From sequence record MT968995.1: a DNA stretch of 64,000 nt. One strand, 5' to 3'. How positions within the stretch are numbered: the first letter of the stretch is position 1; every line of letters starts with the position of its first letter. Position numbers and translations under genes: made by a program. The notes beneath the pieces are model-generated. The model was given only the letters and a program-made list of their open reading frames with translations. It was not told the origin of the DNA and did not search any database. The DNA is from Escherichia phage vB_EcoM_WL-3. Below, one piece after another: positions 28,680-35,347 of the stretch.

Positions 28680-29096
28680 TTAAATGTAAATATTTTTGCC
28701 GTAATACTTATACCAGTGTGGCTTCATTAAAATTTTTTCATCGAGTCGTTGTTGACTCAACTTAATAGCTGATTTGCATGGATTATAATCATTTTTCCAT
28801 TCTACTGGAATATCGCTGATGTCAGGAACTTCAGTATCTTTTATACTGAACCCGCGTTTTAAGCATTCCGTTATAATGTCCGATTGACGCTTTCGCAAAA
28901 ATTCTAACTTATCGTAAAAGAAAGTAACATGACCAGAACCTAAAATAAATTTAGAAGATATTTTAAAATCTTTAACGCGCTTACCGTTTGCCACATGCTT
29001 ACGAACTATACCAAAAACACGCGGCAATTCACGGTATTCTGCGATTAAATGTTGATCAGCAAGTTCAGATACTAAAGTCAAATTAATACGAGTCAT
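28680..29096 (-). CDS. denV: Endonuclease V (pyrimidine-dimer DNA glycosylase)
   Basis: 138 aa; [17 protein letters not shown]...[10 protein letters not shown] matches recalled T4 DenV with substitutions. Confidence 0.9.
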
Positions 29097-29155
29097 TTTA
29101 TCCCTCCAAGTAACTGTGAATATACTATCACAATTCTAGGAGAAAGTAAATAGCT

Positions 29156-29686
<531 letters not shown>

Positions 29687-30142
29687 TTAAAAGAGGCTGT
29701 TCATTATTCGGTAAAGTGAAGGACCCATCACATATTGCCACTGAGTACGAGGAATAAGAGCAAAAGCATCCATCTCTGGAATCATAACACCATCTTTATT
29801 TTCAAAATAAGACTCGCAATGGCAATTTCTAAACATCTCATGCTCTACTGGAATCGTATAATAAAATAACTGAAGGTCTTTATTACTAGAATATTTAAAT
29901 ACACCTAGGTCTTCTAGAAGGTCTGGATTATAATTGCTAAAACCAGTCTCTTCTAAACATTCTCTTCGTGCTGCATCTAGTGCGTTTAAATCAGAATTTT
30001 CTACACGGCCTTTTGGAATATCCCAGCGATGTGCCATCATTCCAGGCTTACGAGAACCAGTAACCCGTCCCATGAATAAATCTTTATCTTCTGTCATAAA
30101 GATAATACCAGCTGATAGTGTTTTCATTTTAATTTCCTGCAT
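29687..30142 (-). CDS. nudE: Nudix hydrolase
   Basis: 151 aa; Nudix box GRVENSDLNALDAARRECLEETGF; alternative start ATG 30127 overlapping upstream stop. Confidence 0.8.
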   Translation of the reverse strand: MQEIKMKTLSAGIIFMTEDKDLFMGRVTGSRKPGMMAHRWDIPKGRVENSDLNALDAARRECLEETGFSNYNPDLLEDLGVFKYSSNKDLQLFYYTIPVEHEMFRNCHCESYFENKDGVMIPEMDAFALIPRTQWQYVMGPSLYRIMNSLF

Positions 30143-30384
30143 TCAGTGATAAAGTTATTTAAATTTTGAGTATATTTCTTTTCATCAAAAATCTTTTGTT
30201 GTCTGCGTAGCCGCCATGGCATTTCTATGAACGTGTACCATATCCCAGATAATATTGCTGCTGTAAAAATATTAACAAGTATGGTTAAAAGAATCCAATC
30301 TCCTATTCTGTCCATTGGATTTTTTATAAAAAAGTAAAATATGAATGATGTCACAGGAAGACTAATAATATACCACAGAATCAT
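30124..30384 (-). CDS. Small membrane protein (e.x cluster)
   Basis: 86 aa; two hydrophobic segments; ATGA-coupled. Confidence 0.5.
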   Translation of the reverse strand: MILWYIISLPVTSFIFYFFIKNPMDRIGDWILLTILVNIFTAAILSGIWYTFIEMPWRLRRQQKIFDEKKYTQNLNNFITECRKLK

Positions 30385-30611
30385 AATTTATCTGTGAACC
30401 AATCAGCGTTCGTTAACTTAGCGCGACCATTATAAATACACACGAATTTATCATCTGTTGCAGTAGATGGCTTAACTGGTTGATATCCCATTCTAAACTC
30501 CCTAATTAACAAATTTTTCATATCTTCGGAACAGCCATTCCAGTCAACTCTATCAACTGGAATGCCATCATCCCCATCATCTAAATCATACCAGCGAGTT
30601 TTTAAAATCAT
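30381..30611 (-). CDS. Hypothetical small protein (e.x cluster)
   Basis: 76 aa; ATGA overlaps on both sides. Confidence 0.5.
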   Translation of the reverse strand: MILKTRWYDLDDGDDGIPVDRVDWNGCSEDMKNLLIREFRMGYQPVKPSTATDDKFVCIYNGRAKLTNADWFTDKL

Positions 30612-30868
30612 TTAATTTTCCTACAATCACTCACAAACTCTTCCATTGATTCTTTTTCAATATAAGACATGTAGTTATTATATTCCTTTAATTGTATTTT
30701 GTAATCCTTTTTTCTTTGCCAATTTATTTTAAAATTATCATAATGAAAATATAGCATGGTGCCAAAGAATGAAAATAATGAAATCGCTATAGTATAACGA
30801 AGTTCACTCCAAACCTCTGTTATAATTACTGTGCCGTCGATGTTTAAAATAAAACAGTCAATTAGCAA
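30608..30868 (-). CDS. Small membrane protein (e.x cluster)
   Basis: 86 aa; hydrophobic N-terminal half. Confidence 0.5.
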   Translation of the reverse strand: MLIDCFILNIDGTVIITEVWSELRYTIAISLFSFFGTMLYFHYDNFKINWQRKKDYKIQLKEYNNYMSYIEKESMEEFVSDCRKIK

Positions 30869-30953
30869 TCCAATAAGAGACTACCCGCAAGAGCTGCAAA
30901 TACTGACACAGCAAGAATTAATAGTGCCTCGGGAAACGAATATTTGACTTTAT

Positions 30954-31346
30954 TTAGTTTTGGCTTTTGCATCGTGATTCCTTAACAAATTTCATAATTT
31001 CATTAAATTCATACATATCTAGTTTAAGCTGGTGTTCCTTTTTAATCTTTTTACACTGAGCTTTCCATTCACGTACACGTTTACGATAATGCCTTCCTTG
31101 ATACCAATATCCTACCCAATTTACAGGTACTAATAAAAATGGAACTACTAATGGAAGAATTAATACTGACAGAAATATTACACCAGATTCAATATCAGTC
31201 ATAACATCTATAACTATTCCAATAATCATTAGGATTATAAATGATACAGCTGTCACAGGACCTACTAATACATCAGTAGGAATTAGCTGGCGCTTTAATT
31301 CATACTTCAACGGTTTACTTGGAAGGTATAGTGATGGTTTTGACAT
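30954..31346 (-). CDS. Small membrane protein (e.x cluster)
   Basis: Start moved to ATG 31346 (AAGGAA SD); long hydrophobic segments. Confidence 0.5.
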   Translation of the reverse strand: MSKPSLYLPSKPLKYELKRQLIPTDVLVGPVTAVSFIILMIIGIVIDVMTDIESGVIFLSVLILPLVVPFLLVPVNWVGYWYQGRHYRKRVREWKAQCKKIKKEHQLKLDMYEFNEIMKFVKESRCKSQN

Positions 31347-31929
31347 ATTCTCTACATTCCTTAACAAATTTTTCTAGTAATAAATCGCTTTCAAAATTGG
31401 GATTTTCTACGAATTTATCAAAAAGATCATCAACAATAGTTAAGATATTCTTTTTACTAAGAATACGTTTATTTTCATGCTTCGTTTCAGAATCAACTAT
31501 AAGAGTAAAGAAATATTTCTTGCCCTGAAATTTTACAGTAGTATCAATATAAAATAAATTTGACTTTTGTAAATTACGTTTAAACCATGCGTCACTTAAA
31601 CTATAAACACCGAGATAATCAAAATCGTCGTTTAAATAACAAACCGTCCATTCAGGAGAAATGAAATCAGTAAATTCAACATCAAAATCACACGTCAATG
31701 AATGAATTGATTCAATACTGTTAATGAGTATTCCAGGACGTATTAAAGACTTTTTACCTCTAGAAAATCTTCCGGAAAGGCTTTCATCAGTTTCATATGA
31801 AGACCCCCAATAGTAATTACGTCCTTCTGCCATGCGTTTAAGAGCATTTAGTAATTGGTCTGGAACATCAACCTGTCTTTGGAACTCTTCAAACATTGAA
31901 TTGAAATCACTTTGCATTTTCATTTTCAT
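31315..31929 (-). CDS. Hypothetical protein (e.x cluster)
   Basis: ORF track 204 aa. Confidence 0.55.
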   Translation of the reverse strand: MKMKMQSDFNSMFEEFQRQVDVPDQLLNALKRMAEGRNYYWGSSYETDESLSGRFSRGKKSLIRPGILINSIESIHSLTCDFDVEFTDFISPEWTVCYLNDDFDYLGVYSLSDAWFKRNLQKSNLFYIDTTVKFQGKKYFFTLIVDSETKHENKRILSKKNILTIVDDLFDKFVENPNFESDLLLEKFVKECREYVKTITIPSK

Positions 31930-31948
31930 TCCTATTTACTCCAAGTAT

Positions 31949-31966
31949 AAGGGGCCGAAGCCCCTT
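31949..31966 (-). terminator. GC hairpin AAGGGGC-CGAA-GCCCCTT
   Basis: Stem-loop immediately after the stop of ORF 31971-32564. Confidence 0.45.
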
Positions 31967-31970
31967 ATCA

Positions 31971-32564
31971 TTATTTCAGAGAATTAATGTATTCCTGAAC
32001 ATCGGCAGAGGTAGTTTCAACCCCAGAAATATTACCGTTAAAGGTTTCAACTCGAGCAAGGGTATCTTCAATATCAACCTTAGTCAGTGCTGCAATTTCA
32101 ACTACATCATCAGCAGTACTAATTCCAAGGGCATTTGCTGCACGAGTTTCACGGATATATTCCAATTTAACCGCAAGTTCTTGACGAGCATCATCTAACT
32201 CAACTACTTTCTTGGCGATTTCAATTCGCATTTCAGCATAACCGTCAGCCTTAGTAGTCAACTGCTCAGCTGTTCGACGATATAGTAAACCGAGTTTAGC
32301 ATGCATTGTTACATCTTGGCCTTCGAAAAGAAGTTTACGAATTTCACGCTCTTTTGATTCGGCCTGTCGATTCTTTTCGATAACAAGTTCACGAATACGT
32401 TTTTCTTCGTTAATAGATTTAACAGAAGCAGTTTTTAGATCTTTAATTTTATCAAGTAGTTTTGCTGCTGCAGCAGTATACTGTTCTTCGACAGATAGAT
32501 TTTTAGCCATAGCAGAACCAAGTTTAGTGCGAATAAACTCAACAATTTTCTTCAGTGTGTTCAT
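31971..32564 (-). CDS. Coiled-coil protein, possibly PspA/IM30-like
   Basis: 197 aa; all-helical, heptad-rich; weak by-eye resemblance to PspA family. Confidence 0.55.
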
Positions 32565-32665
32565 AGTATTTCCTTAGGTTAATTGAGATTTAAAATCCGT
32601 AGGAGTATAATACTCTATCGTCAAATTATAGGCTCATAATATCTCAATCATGAGCCTGCGTAAAC

Positions 32666-33158: not shown

Positions 33159-33722
33159 TTATTTACCTAGTTTAGTTATTATAGCTTCGGCAGCAGCTTT
33201 TAGCTTAGATGCGGTGTTAATACGATTTTTAATTTCAGTATACGCATCGCCAAGAACGTCGAGGCTATCAGAATAAACACTTACACTATTGCGTTCGCTA
33301 TTTGAAATAGAACCTTTAGTTTTGCGGTCAAAATCGGTGTACACGTCTTGAAGATCGCGGGCTGCCTTCTTTGCATCATCCAATGCATCAAGAGCTTTAT
33401 TCAAAGCATTAACGTATTTTTTAGTGTCGAACATATTCTTAGAAATTTTAACAGGTGCGCGTTCAGGAGTAGCTAACACAGATTTAGGAACCTGAGCGCC
33501 AGATGCCAATTTCTTAGAAATTTTGAAAAATGCTTTATTGAATTTATTTTCTTGACTCATTGTAAAAGAACTATTATCGATGTTGTACATTTCAATAGCT
33601 TTAGCTTTCCACTTAAGAAAATCGCCGCGGTCTTTTGGATCCAATTGGAAGAATACTTTAGTAAGTTCTGCTTCAGATGGTAATTTTGCTGCTTCGGTTA
33701 AAAATTCGGCATAGGTTTTCAT
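33159..33722 (-). CDS. Capsid-targeted internal protein (IPIII-like)
   Basis: 187 aa; N-terminal capsid targeting sequence MKTYAEFLTEA of the MKTYQEFIAE type; basic, Lys/Ala-rich. Confidence 0.65.
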   Translation of the reverse strand: MKTYAEFLTEAAKLPSEAELTKVFFQLDPKDRGDFLKWKAKAIEMYNIDNSSFTMSQENKFNKAFFKISKKLASGAQVPKSVLATPERAPVKISKNMFDTKKYVNALNKALDALDDAKKAARDLQDVYTDFDRKTKGSISNSERNSVSVYSDSLDVLGDAYTEIKNRINTASKLKAAAEAIITKLGK

Positions 33723-34861: not shown

Positions 34862-35347
34862 TTATTTTATGTAATATTTATTTAAAAACTTTCTAGCTTG
34901 AGTATGGCTAACATTTATAGCATTTGCATAATTTTTAATAAAACCTCGTTCATCCATATTAAAACTTTCTAATATTTTTAATCGTCTAGCTATCTCATCT
35001 TGACTTAAAGTACTTGCATTATTTTTAGAAATTTTTTCTAAGGACTGTACTGAGTGTTTTCGACCATTAAAATTAAAATTTTTAGATTTTGGAGGAAATC
35101 TATCATTTAGTCTCGCATCTTTTGTATTTTGATTATTAGTTGCGCAATATATGTTATTTAATGAGTATGGTCCTTTATCACCAAAACGGCACATACAGTA
35201 TTCATGACCCTTTCTTCCACGCTTATCATAATTTCCCGTTGATTTCCACCAATGCAACCACTCATCAAAAGTTAAATTCCATTCAATGTTTCTACGTATA
35301 GCAGAATTCCGCTGAGAAATATATTTTGCATAATCTTCTTTCATCAC
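34862..35347 (-). CDS. Cys/His-rich ORF in the tRNA gap; candidate mobile nuclease-like gene
   Basis: 161 aa; A/T-rich; motif NLTFDEWLHWW...GHEYCMCRFGDKGPYSLNNIYC; occupies the slot where T4 carries segB. Confidence 0.55.
   Translation of the reverse strand: MMKEDYAKYISQRNSAIRRNIEWNLTFDEWLHWWKSTGNYDKRGRKGHEYCMCRFGDKGPYSLNNIYCATNNQNTKDARLNDRFPPKSKNFNFNGRKHSVQSLEKISKNNASTLSQDEIARRLKILESFNMDERGFIKNYANAINVSHTQARKFLNKYYIK

Follow-up and report, generated by a model that had tools for sequence, protein, structure and literature searches.

The e.6 protein of T4-like phages is a divergent PspA/IM30/Vipp1 homologue encoded upstream of proteins with a shared C-terminal tail motif

The e.6 proteins of T4-like phages form a divergent, phage-borne branch of the PspA/IM30/Vipp1 family, which belongs to the ESCRT-III superfamily. 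We studied e.6 in a 64,000-nucleotide stretch of Escherichia phage vB_EcoM_WL-3 (MT968995.1), hereafter the window, in which an initial annotation made from the letters had pointed by eye to a weak, low-confidence resemblance in length and charge pattern between a 197-aa product and PspA/IM30 membrane-stress proteins. That resemblance is borne out by a profile match of the e.6 family to Vipp1, by profile-profile alignment with PspA, by family members that pass the curated Pfam cut-off, by Vipp1 at the top of a structure search and by a published HHpred result; the profile and structure searches by which the initial annotation proposed to judge its own reading thus both return PspA-family proteins. 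The likeness itself is not new. One sentence in a 2021 genome announcement records that the T4-e.6 homologue of Klebsiella phage Metamorpho matches E. coli PspA (4WHE_A) by HHpred at 99.9% (PMC7862958), and a few database names point the same way, one Vi01-like homologue being called "PspA/IM30 family protein" at NCBI and that of Serratia phage Kevin "PspA protein" in GenBank. A broad survey of the evolution of the PSP system is written without discussion of phage homologues (PMC11237479). Our literature searches returned e.6 in omics tables only and found no functional study of it.

The window is from the genome of a T4-like (Tequatrovirus) phage, and the 197-aa ORF occupies exactly the minus-strand coordinates first assigned to it (Table 1). 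It is a genuine gene: the orthologue of T4 e.6 (NP_049742, 98% identity), widespread, and with a product detected by mass spectrometry in T4. It matches phrog_1203 at E 6e-87 over residues 1-197, the PHROG being labelled "unknown function", and the gene order around it is that of T4 (NC_000866), which together place it in the T4 e.6 family. By tblastn, e.6 was found in 1,099 phage records, with coverage of at least 80% in 1,091 of them, and the hosts of these phages include Escherichia, Klebsiella, Shigella, Aeromonas, Enterobacter, Yersinia and others. The gene is nevertheless listed as hypothetical in the T4 reference annotation, and still so in the tables of the CRISPRi-ART (PMC11879866) and HIDEN-SEQ (10.1101/2025.11.20.689424) screens. 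Many GenBank and UniRef records of e.6 homologues carry the label "host specificity protein", a name for which we found no support. The e.6 gene of phage RB43 (4001-4447 of the locus excerpt) is annotated at just 97 aa, and the tblastn match begins at e.6 residue 52; this gene is either truncated or mis-annotated.

Upstream of e.6 we noted a Shine-Dalgarno sequence and a weak candidate sigma-70-like promoter. The candidate is consistent with the early transcription of T4 e.6, and sites that match the consensus equally well occur in the region as often as expected by chance. The best sigma-70 match of the region, TTGAGA-17 nt-TATAAT (11 of 12 positions), lies on the plus strand at 32583-32611 and, oriented antisense to e.6, points into the beginning of that gene; chance may account for it. 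The T4 gene e.7 is missing from the window (32565-32665), and e.6 is separated from an e.8-like ORF by a gap of about 100 nt.

Taken as a single sequence, e.6 gave no match to PF04012 in Pfam even at E values up to 10, where weak coiled-coil noise was all that appeared, no match in NCBIfam, TIGR02977 included, and none among PDB sequences. Pairwise BLASTP against E. coli PspA (from NC_000913) aligned the two proteins colinearly (24% identity, E 0.027). A profile of close e.6 relatives reached Vipp1 in the PDB at an E value of only about 2, and hhalign of two narrow alignments failed with a probability of 0.2%; the comparison with PspA by hhalign succeeded only once diverse members of the e.6 family were added. 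In an HMM search of 1.84 billion representative proteins with the close-relative profile, the family proved to be closed, comprising only 45 representatives at E values of 1e-3 or below, all of 209 aa or less. The diverse alignment used below holds 38 full-length family members whose identity to the window protein goes down to 18%.

The profile of these 38 proteins matched Synechocystis Vipp1 at E 1e-4, with residues 1-146 lying on 1-147, and several further Vipp1/PspA chains at E 2.5e-4 to 4e-3. Aligned by hhalign with enterobacterial PspA alone, it gave an E value of 1.5e-4 over 167 columns. A contig scan for PspA relatives yielded only sequences of at least 82% identity, and the Vipp1 sequence was therefore added to the PspA alignment; against this combined alignment the probability was 92% (E 6.6e-7, 171 columns, 13% identity), e.6 residues 1-177 being placed on PspA 1-173 and the e.6 motif ARVETF opposite ARFESF. 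Moreover, five of the 38 members matched PF04012 individually, and two passed its gathering cut-off of 33.9 bits (P0186 with 39.0 and P0185 with 35.1 bits). Both had been reached, over their full length, from the close-relative e.6 profile (P0185 at E 1e-21, P0186 at E 3e-20). The similarity of e.6 to PspA and Vipp1 is significant at the profile level, colinear and nearly full length, as expected of common descent; e.6 itself does not reach 33.9 bits against PF04012. As e.6 passes neither the Pfam nor the TIGRFAM threshold, we file it as a divergent homologue that forms its own phage subfamily of PspA/IM30, and not as a threshold member of PF04012 or an orthologue of E. coli PspA.

An AlphaFold2 model of e.6 based on 30 sequences (mean pLDDT 74.7) places helices at residues 3-20, 25-80, 86-145, 165-175 and 186-196. 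They make up about 79% of the protein, so that its first description as entirely helical was right about its nature and slightly overstated its extent. Confidence is low at residues 1-20 and 148-162. The model has the long hairpin followed by shorter C-terminal helices that characterizes the ESCRT-III-like fold, with K90, L91, L94 and R96 invariant in our alignment A1 at the start of the second arm, and T174 and F175 invariant in the same alignment within the C-terminal helices. Residues 2-20 are presumed to form the membrane-binding element: the amphipathic alpha-0 helix of PspA/IM30 proteins has a predicted counterpart here, modelled at low pLDDT over residues 3-20, with a hydrophobic moment of 0.45 over residues 2-19, compared with 0.42 for E. 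coli PspA, that ranks 6th of 180 windows.

When the model was compared with 350,542 PDB chains by Foldseek, the first eight ranks were all Vipp1, although the E values of the best matches were modest (1e-3 to 2e-2); ranks 9-30 include archaeal CdvB2 filaments at E 0.04 or weaker. In a library of viral structures, the first matches after the e.6 family itself were a Snf7 family protein, which is a giant-virus protein at rank 7, and a phage PspA/IM30 protein. We considered whether e.6 might be a generic coiled coil that resembles PspA through helical composition and not through common descent. Such a chance likeness is now unlikely, and we give it hardly any credence: in three independent tests the alignment starts at residue 1 and stays colinear over 146 columns or more, family members score above the curated Pfam threshold, Vipp1 fills all eight top ranks of the structure search, and an independent published HHpred result agrees (PMC7862958).

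Among characterized proteins, the best match of e.6 by profile and by Foldseek alike is Synechocystis Vipp1/IM30 (sll0617; PDB 7O3W, 8QFV and the 6ZVR group). Both proteins have an N-terminal amphipathic helix and a long hairpin, at an aligned identity of about 14-19% (Foldseek), and e.6, at 197 aa, is shorter than the solved Vipp1 chains of 266-277 residues; unlike Vipp1, it is phage-encoded and expressed early in infection. We take it that e.6 lacks the C-terminal extension of Vipp1. E. coli PspA (PDB 4WHE) aligns colinearly with e.6 and has a similar N-terminal hydrophobic moment, whereas e.6 is 25 residues shorter, has no pspF-, pspB- or pspC-like genes nearby and is preceded by a weak sigma-70-like candidate promoter, psp being sigma-54-dependent (PMC12795941). 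The resemblance to ESCRT-III, Snf7 and CdvB proteins is weak and at the superfamily level of fold, with no match to a Snf7 sequence profile: PF03357 is absent from the Pfam scan of e.6 and from the 25 families listed for its 38 relatives. No Vps4-type ATPase is found among the named genes of annotated e.6 flanks.

Table 1. Positions in the window of e.6, its predicted structural elements and the neighbouring features discussed in the text.
Feature	Coordinates	Strand	Remarks
denV	28680-29096	-	
Endolysin gene e	29156-29650	-	
nudE	29687-30142	-	
e.2, split into 76 aa + 86 aa	30124..30611	-	Second piece ends ...LNNFITECRKLK; motif at 30136-30153
e.3, split	30608..30972	-	C-terminal piece ends ...MEEFVSDCRKIK; motif at 30620-30637
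e.4, 130 aa, membrane protein	30954..31346	-	Degenerate tail ...MKFVKESRCKSQN, from translation
e.5, 204 aa, soluble	31315..31929	-	First gene 3' of e.6; ends ...LLEKFVKECREYVKTITIPSK
e.5 tail motif FVKECR	31351..31368	-	
GC-rich hairpin GGGGC-UUCG-GCCCC	31947..31968	-	UUCG loop; in the 41-nt gap between e.6 and e.5
e.6 CDS, 197 aa	31971..32564	-	ATG-to-stop ORF, stop included; PHROG 1203
Two short C-terminal helices (alpha-4/5 equivalents), residues 165-196	31977..32072	-	AlphaFold2, 165-175 and 186-196; contain ARVETF
Hairpin arm 2 (alpha-2/3), residues 86-145	32130..32309	-	AlphaFold2; begins with the best-conserved stretch of the family
Hairpin arm 1 (alpha-1), residues 25-80	32325..32492	-	AlphaFold2, pLDDT 83-95; colinear with Vipp1 and PspA
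Predicted N-terminal amphipathic helix, residues 2-20	32505..32561	-	Counterpart of PspA/Vipp1 alpha-0; aligns to Vipp1 1-20
Shine-Dalgarno AAGGA of e.6	32571..32575	-	Direct sequence reading; 7 nt before the start codon
Candidate sigma-70-like promoter, TTTACG-17 nt-TATTAT	32636..32664	-	5' of e.6; weak consensus match, 9 of 12 positions

Between 27.6 and 36 kb, the minus strand of the window carries, in order, denV, e, nudE, e.2, e.3, e.4, e.5, e.6, an e.8-like gene, an ORF with an internal-protein-like N-terminus and nine tRNA genes. The initial annotation had placed e.6 just upstream of four translationally coupled small membrane proteins. The gene overlaps (4-32 nt) stand, whereas direct adjacency does not, as the soluble e.5 intervenes; and the four proteins resolve into e.4 and two pieces each of e.3 and e.2; the 76-aa e.2 piece (30381-30611) has no hydrophobic segment, and the 86-aa second piece has two predicted membrane segments. 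Relative to T4 and OQ721909, an insertion of 2 bp near 30880 (GTCTCTTATT compared with GTCTTATT) breaks e.3 into ORFs of 36 aa and 86 aa, and a 1-bp difference near 30387 breaks e.2, whose pieces share an ATGA overlap; these splits could reflect real decay, sequencing error or recoding. The GC-rich hairpin between e.6 and e.5 might serve RNA stability or attenuation. None of e.2 to e.5 matched Pfam, neither e.6 nor e.5 matched the defence-system library, and the single-sequence AlphaFold2 model of e.5 (pLDDT 38) was too low in confidence for a fold search.

A link between e.6 and its neighbours gains support from a C-terminal tail that these proteins share. The tail F-[IV]-x-x-C-[RK] is common to e.5, e.3 (FVSDCRKIK) and e.2 (FITECRKLK), the e.4 form being degenerate, and extends to the consensus [LIV]-[EDN]-x-F-[IV]-x-x-C-[RK] followed by basic residues. 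The proteins that carry it have nothing else in common as a family, and their genes lie downstream of e.6 on the e.6 strand. When e.5 is compared with the genes 3' of e.6 in Aeromonas phage 65 and RB43, a short C-terminal stretch alone aligns (FVKECR, FIKECR and FIHSCK). In the window, the motif occurs in 3 of 312 six-frame ORFs, which are e.5, e.3 and e.2, and in the whole T4 genome in 3 of 1,262, which are e.5, e.3 and an unannotated e.2 remnant. The latter is a 51-aa ORF on the minus strand of T4 (NC_000866, 67472-67627), located between nudE and the annotated e.2 and ending ...NNFITECRKLK; on sequence grounds it is what remains of the C-terminus of e.2, which other phages have at its full length of 162 aa. 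We rejected the idea that the tail is a chance pattern, as its three six-frame occurrences in T4 all fall within this cluster.

Across T4-like loci, which are related to one another so that their counts overstate independence, the motif was present in 118 of 731 ORFs downstream of e.6, compared with 4 of 1,472 upstream or on the opposite strand; likewise, 40 of 43 loci have an ORF with the tail that begins no more than 400 nt past e.6, and two of the three exceptions have FINYCI or FVEYCI. The 122 distinct tail proteins fall into three groups: soluble proteins of about 150-290 aa that adjoin e.6, membrane proteins of 84-197 aa, mostly with two segments, and small soluble proteins. The pair formed by e.6 and an e.5-like gene is retained in differing surroundings, lying between e and the tRNA genes in T4, between gene 31 and the tRNA nucleotidyltransferase gene in Aeromonas phage 65, and between nrdD and nrdG in RB43.

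A similar arrangement recurs in Ackermannviridae. The PspA/IM30-like proteins of Salmonella phage Vi01, SKML-39 and Serratia phage Kevin, of about 200 aa, belong to the same family as e.6, being matched by the e.6 profile over their full length at E 1e-19 to 1e-21, albeit at an identity to e.6 of only about 22-25%. It is divergent Vi01-like members that pass PF04012 directly, and the family therefore spans Straboviridae and Ackermannviridae. As with e.6, small tail-bearing membrane proteins follow the PspA-like gene: in six loci, one to three small ORFs beginning 64-776 nt after it end in I-[IV]-x-x-A-R and basic residues, so that the tail carries alanine where the T4-like partners have cysteine. 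Nine of the ten tail ORFs are predicted as membrane proteins with a single transmembrane segment, and the tail was found nowhere else in the six loci on either strand. The stronger case for linkage lies in this recurrence, the PspA-like proteins of the two phage families being only about 25% identical. The tail motif and its linkage to e.6 appear to be new, no earlier description having been found in literature searches aimed at e.6 and PspA.

PspA homologues encoded beside small membrane anchors are familiar from PspA with PspB and PspC in E. coli and from LiaH with LiaI in Bacillus (PMC11237479). As in these Psp and Lia modules, the PspA homologue e.6 precedes genes for small membrane proteins whose C-termini are cytoplasmic, here with the soluble e.5 in between. 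The adjacency of PspA homologue and tail proteins is strong and conserved in two phage families. Unlike the Psp and Lia anchors, however, the candidate partners of e.6 match no known family, Psp or Lia families included; what they have in common is a short C-terminal motif, and some of them, e.5 for example, are soluble.

The best explanation of these data, which we place a little on the probable side, is that e.6 acts as an early phage PspA-type stabilizer of the inner membrane, with the tails of its neighbours as possible recruiters, a reading drawn from homology, predicted fold, expression timing and gene neighbourhood. Produced early in infection, e.6 would attach to the host inner membrane from the cytoplasmic side via its N-terminal amphipathic helix and polymerize via its long helical hairpin, like PspA and Vipp1. 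The polymer would seal or stabilize the membrane and keep the proton-motive force under the stress that may come from DNA injection, from the phage's own membrane proteins and from superinfecting phage. Because T4 shuts off host transcription, the host would hardly be able to induce its own psp operon, and e.6 would substitute for the response that is blocked. In a more speculative step, the tail F-[IV]-x-x-C-[RK] would be a docking peptide that recruits e.6 to e.5, e.4, e.3 and e.2, by analogy with the recruitment of PspA by PspC and of LiaH by LiaI; the docking idea is speculative and comes solely from gene linkage. Taken further, and only tentatively, T4-like and Vi01-like phages might carry a self-contained membrane-maintenance module, in which e.6 as an ESCRT-III-superfamily polymer and a set of soluble and membrane adaptors, each with a C-terminal docking peptide of the form hydrophobic-[IV]-x-x-[C/A]-R plus basic residues, would reseal or shape the host inner membrane.

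Published data bear on when such a protein would act. In T4, e.6 has an early RNA and a middle-period protein detected by mass spectrometry, while e.4 and e.5 have early RNA and early protein (PMC9697503 supplement). The genes e.2-e.8 were scored "Not Fit" by CRISPRi-ART (PMC11879866 supplement), which we read as no fitness effect of knock-down, and HIDEN-SEQ reported e.6 as non-essential, with 43 of 43 insertions tolerated (bioRxiv 10.1101/2025.11.20.689424 supplement). As e.6 and the other genes of e.2-e.8 are dispensable in laboratory screens, any membrane role would be conditional or redundant.

These data bear directly on a role in lysis timing or inhibition, in which e.6 would stabilize the inner membrane against premature triggering of the holin. 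PspA-type proteins protect the proton-motive force, the loss of which triggers holins, and e.6 lies in one co-directional run with the endolysin gene e. The initial annotation had raised lysis inhibition as a possibility. We found nothing to support this specific role and regard it as quite improbable: in T4, e.6 is transcribed early and its protein appears in the middle period rather than late; the gene is located away from the lysis genes in Aeromonas phage 65, RB43 and Ackermannviridae; and the knock-down and insertion screens saw no fitness effect.

Another reading takes e.6 as a PspA mimic that binds host PspF or PspB/PspC and silences or hijacks the phage-shock response instead of repairing the membrane. 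PspF is the sigma-54 activator that PspA inhibits, and it is bound by the hairpin region (4WHE) of E. coli PspA. The homology of e.6 spans this region as crystallized in PDB 4WHE, e.6 is made early, and the host psp operon is induced only weakly by T4, unlike by PhiX174 (PMC12795941). At an identity to E. coli PspA of about 24% pairwise and 13% by hhalign, however, conservation of the PspF-binding surface is doubtful, and the e.6 family is retained in phages of distant hosts (Aeromonas) and in Ackermannviridae. The conserved amphipathic N-terminus and the co-encoded membrane proteins suit a membrane-directed role better, and host transcription is shut off by T4 anyway; we therefore consider a mimic of this kind unlikely.

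Rather unlikely too, in our estimation, is that e.6 remodels membrane for some other end, either by organizing membrane-attached sites of assembly or replication or in counter-defence, by specifically patching pores that superinfecting phage or membrane-attacking abortive-infection effectors open. Its place in the ESCRT-III superfamily and its position in a variable region rich in small membrane proteins would fit such a function, as would dispensability in standard laboratory hosts, which is usual for accessory counter-defence genes; yet e.6 has no match in the defence-system library, and no defence-related partner is visible in its neighbourhood.

The preferred reading, of e.6 as a PspA-type membrane stabilizer, would have several implications. 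PspA was named for its induction by phage, and here the phage has its own copy. T4 itself, studied more than any other virulent phage, carries the gene, as do over 1,000 sequenced relatives, yet e.6 is still listed as hypothetical. If e.6 is a working phage PspA, phages would actively manage the integrity and energy state of the host inner membrane. Classical observations on T4 include resealing of the membrane after injection and resistance to lysis from without, and a phage PspA could bear on both, as it could on the weak induction of host psp by T4 (PMC12795941). If the tail is indeed a docking peptide, it would make the recruitment of ESCRT-III-type polymers accessible in a small, genetically tractable system.

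Two further ORFs of this region were noted. A 187-aa ORF on the minus strand (33159-33722, phrog_2280) begins MKTYAEFLTEA, a start that resembles the capsid-targeting sequence of T4 internal proteins. Between denV and e (29097-29155), where T4 has ipII and ipIII, these two genes are missing, and the 33159-33722 ORF seems to be an internal-protein gene that has moved or an alternative one. Within the tRNA cluster, a 161-aa ORF on the minus strand (34862-35347), which has no Pfam match, stands where T4 has segB, which encodes a homing endonuclease; OQ721909 has a counterpart that belongs to phrog_16521 and is annotated as hypothetical.
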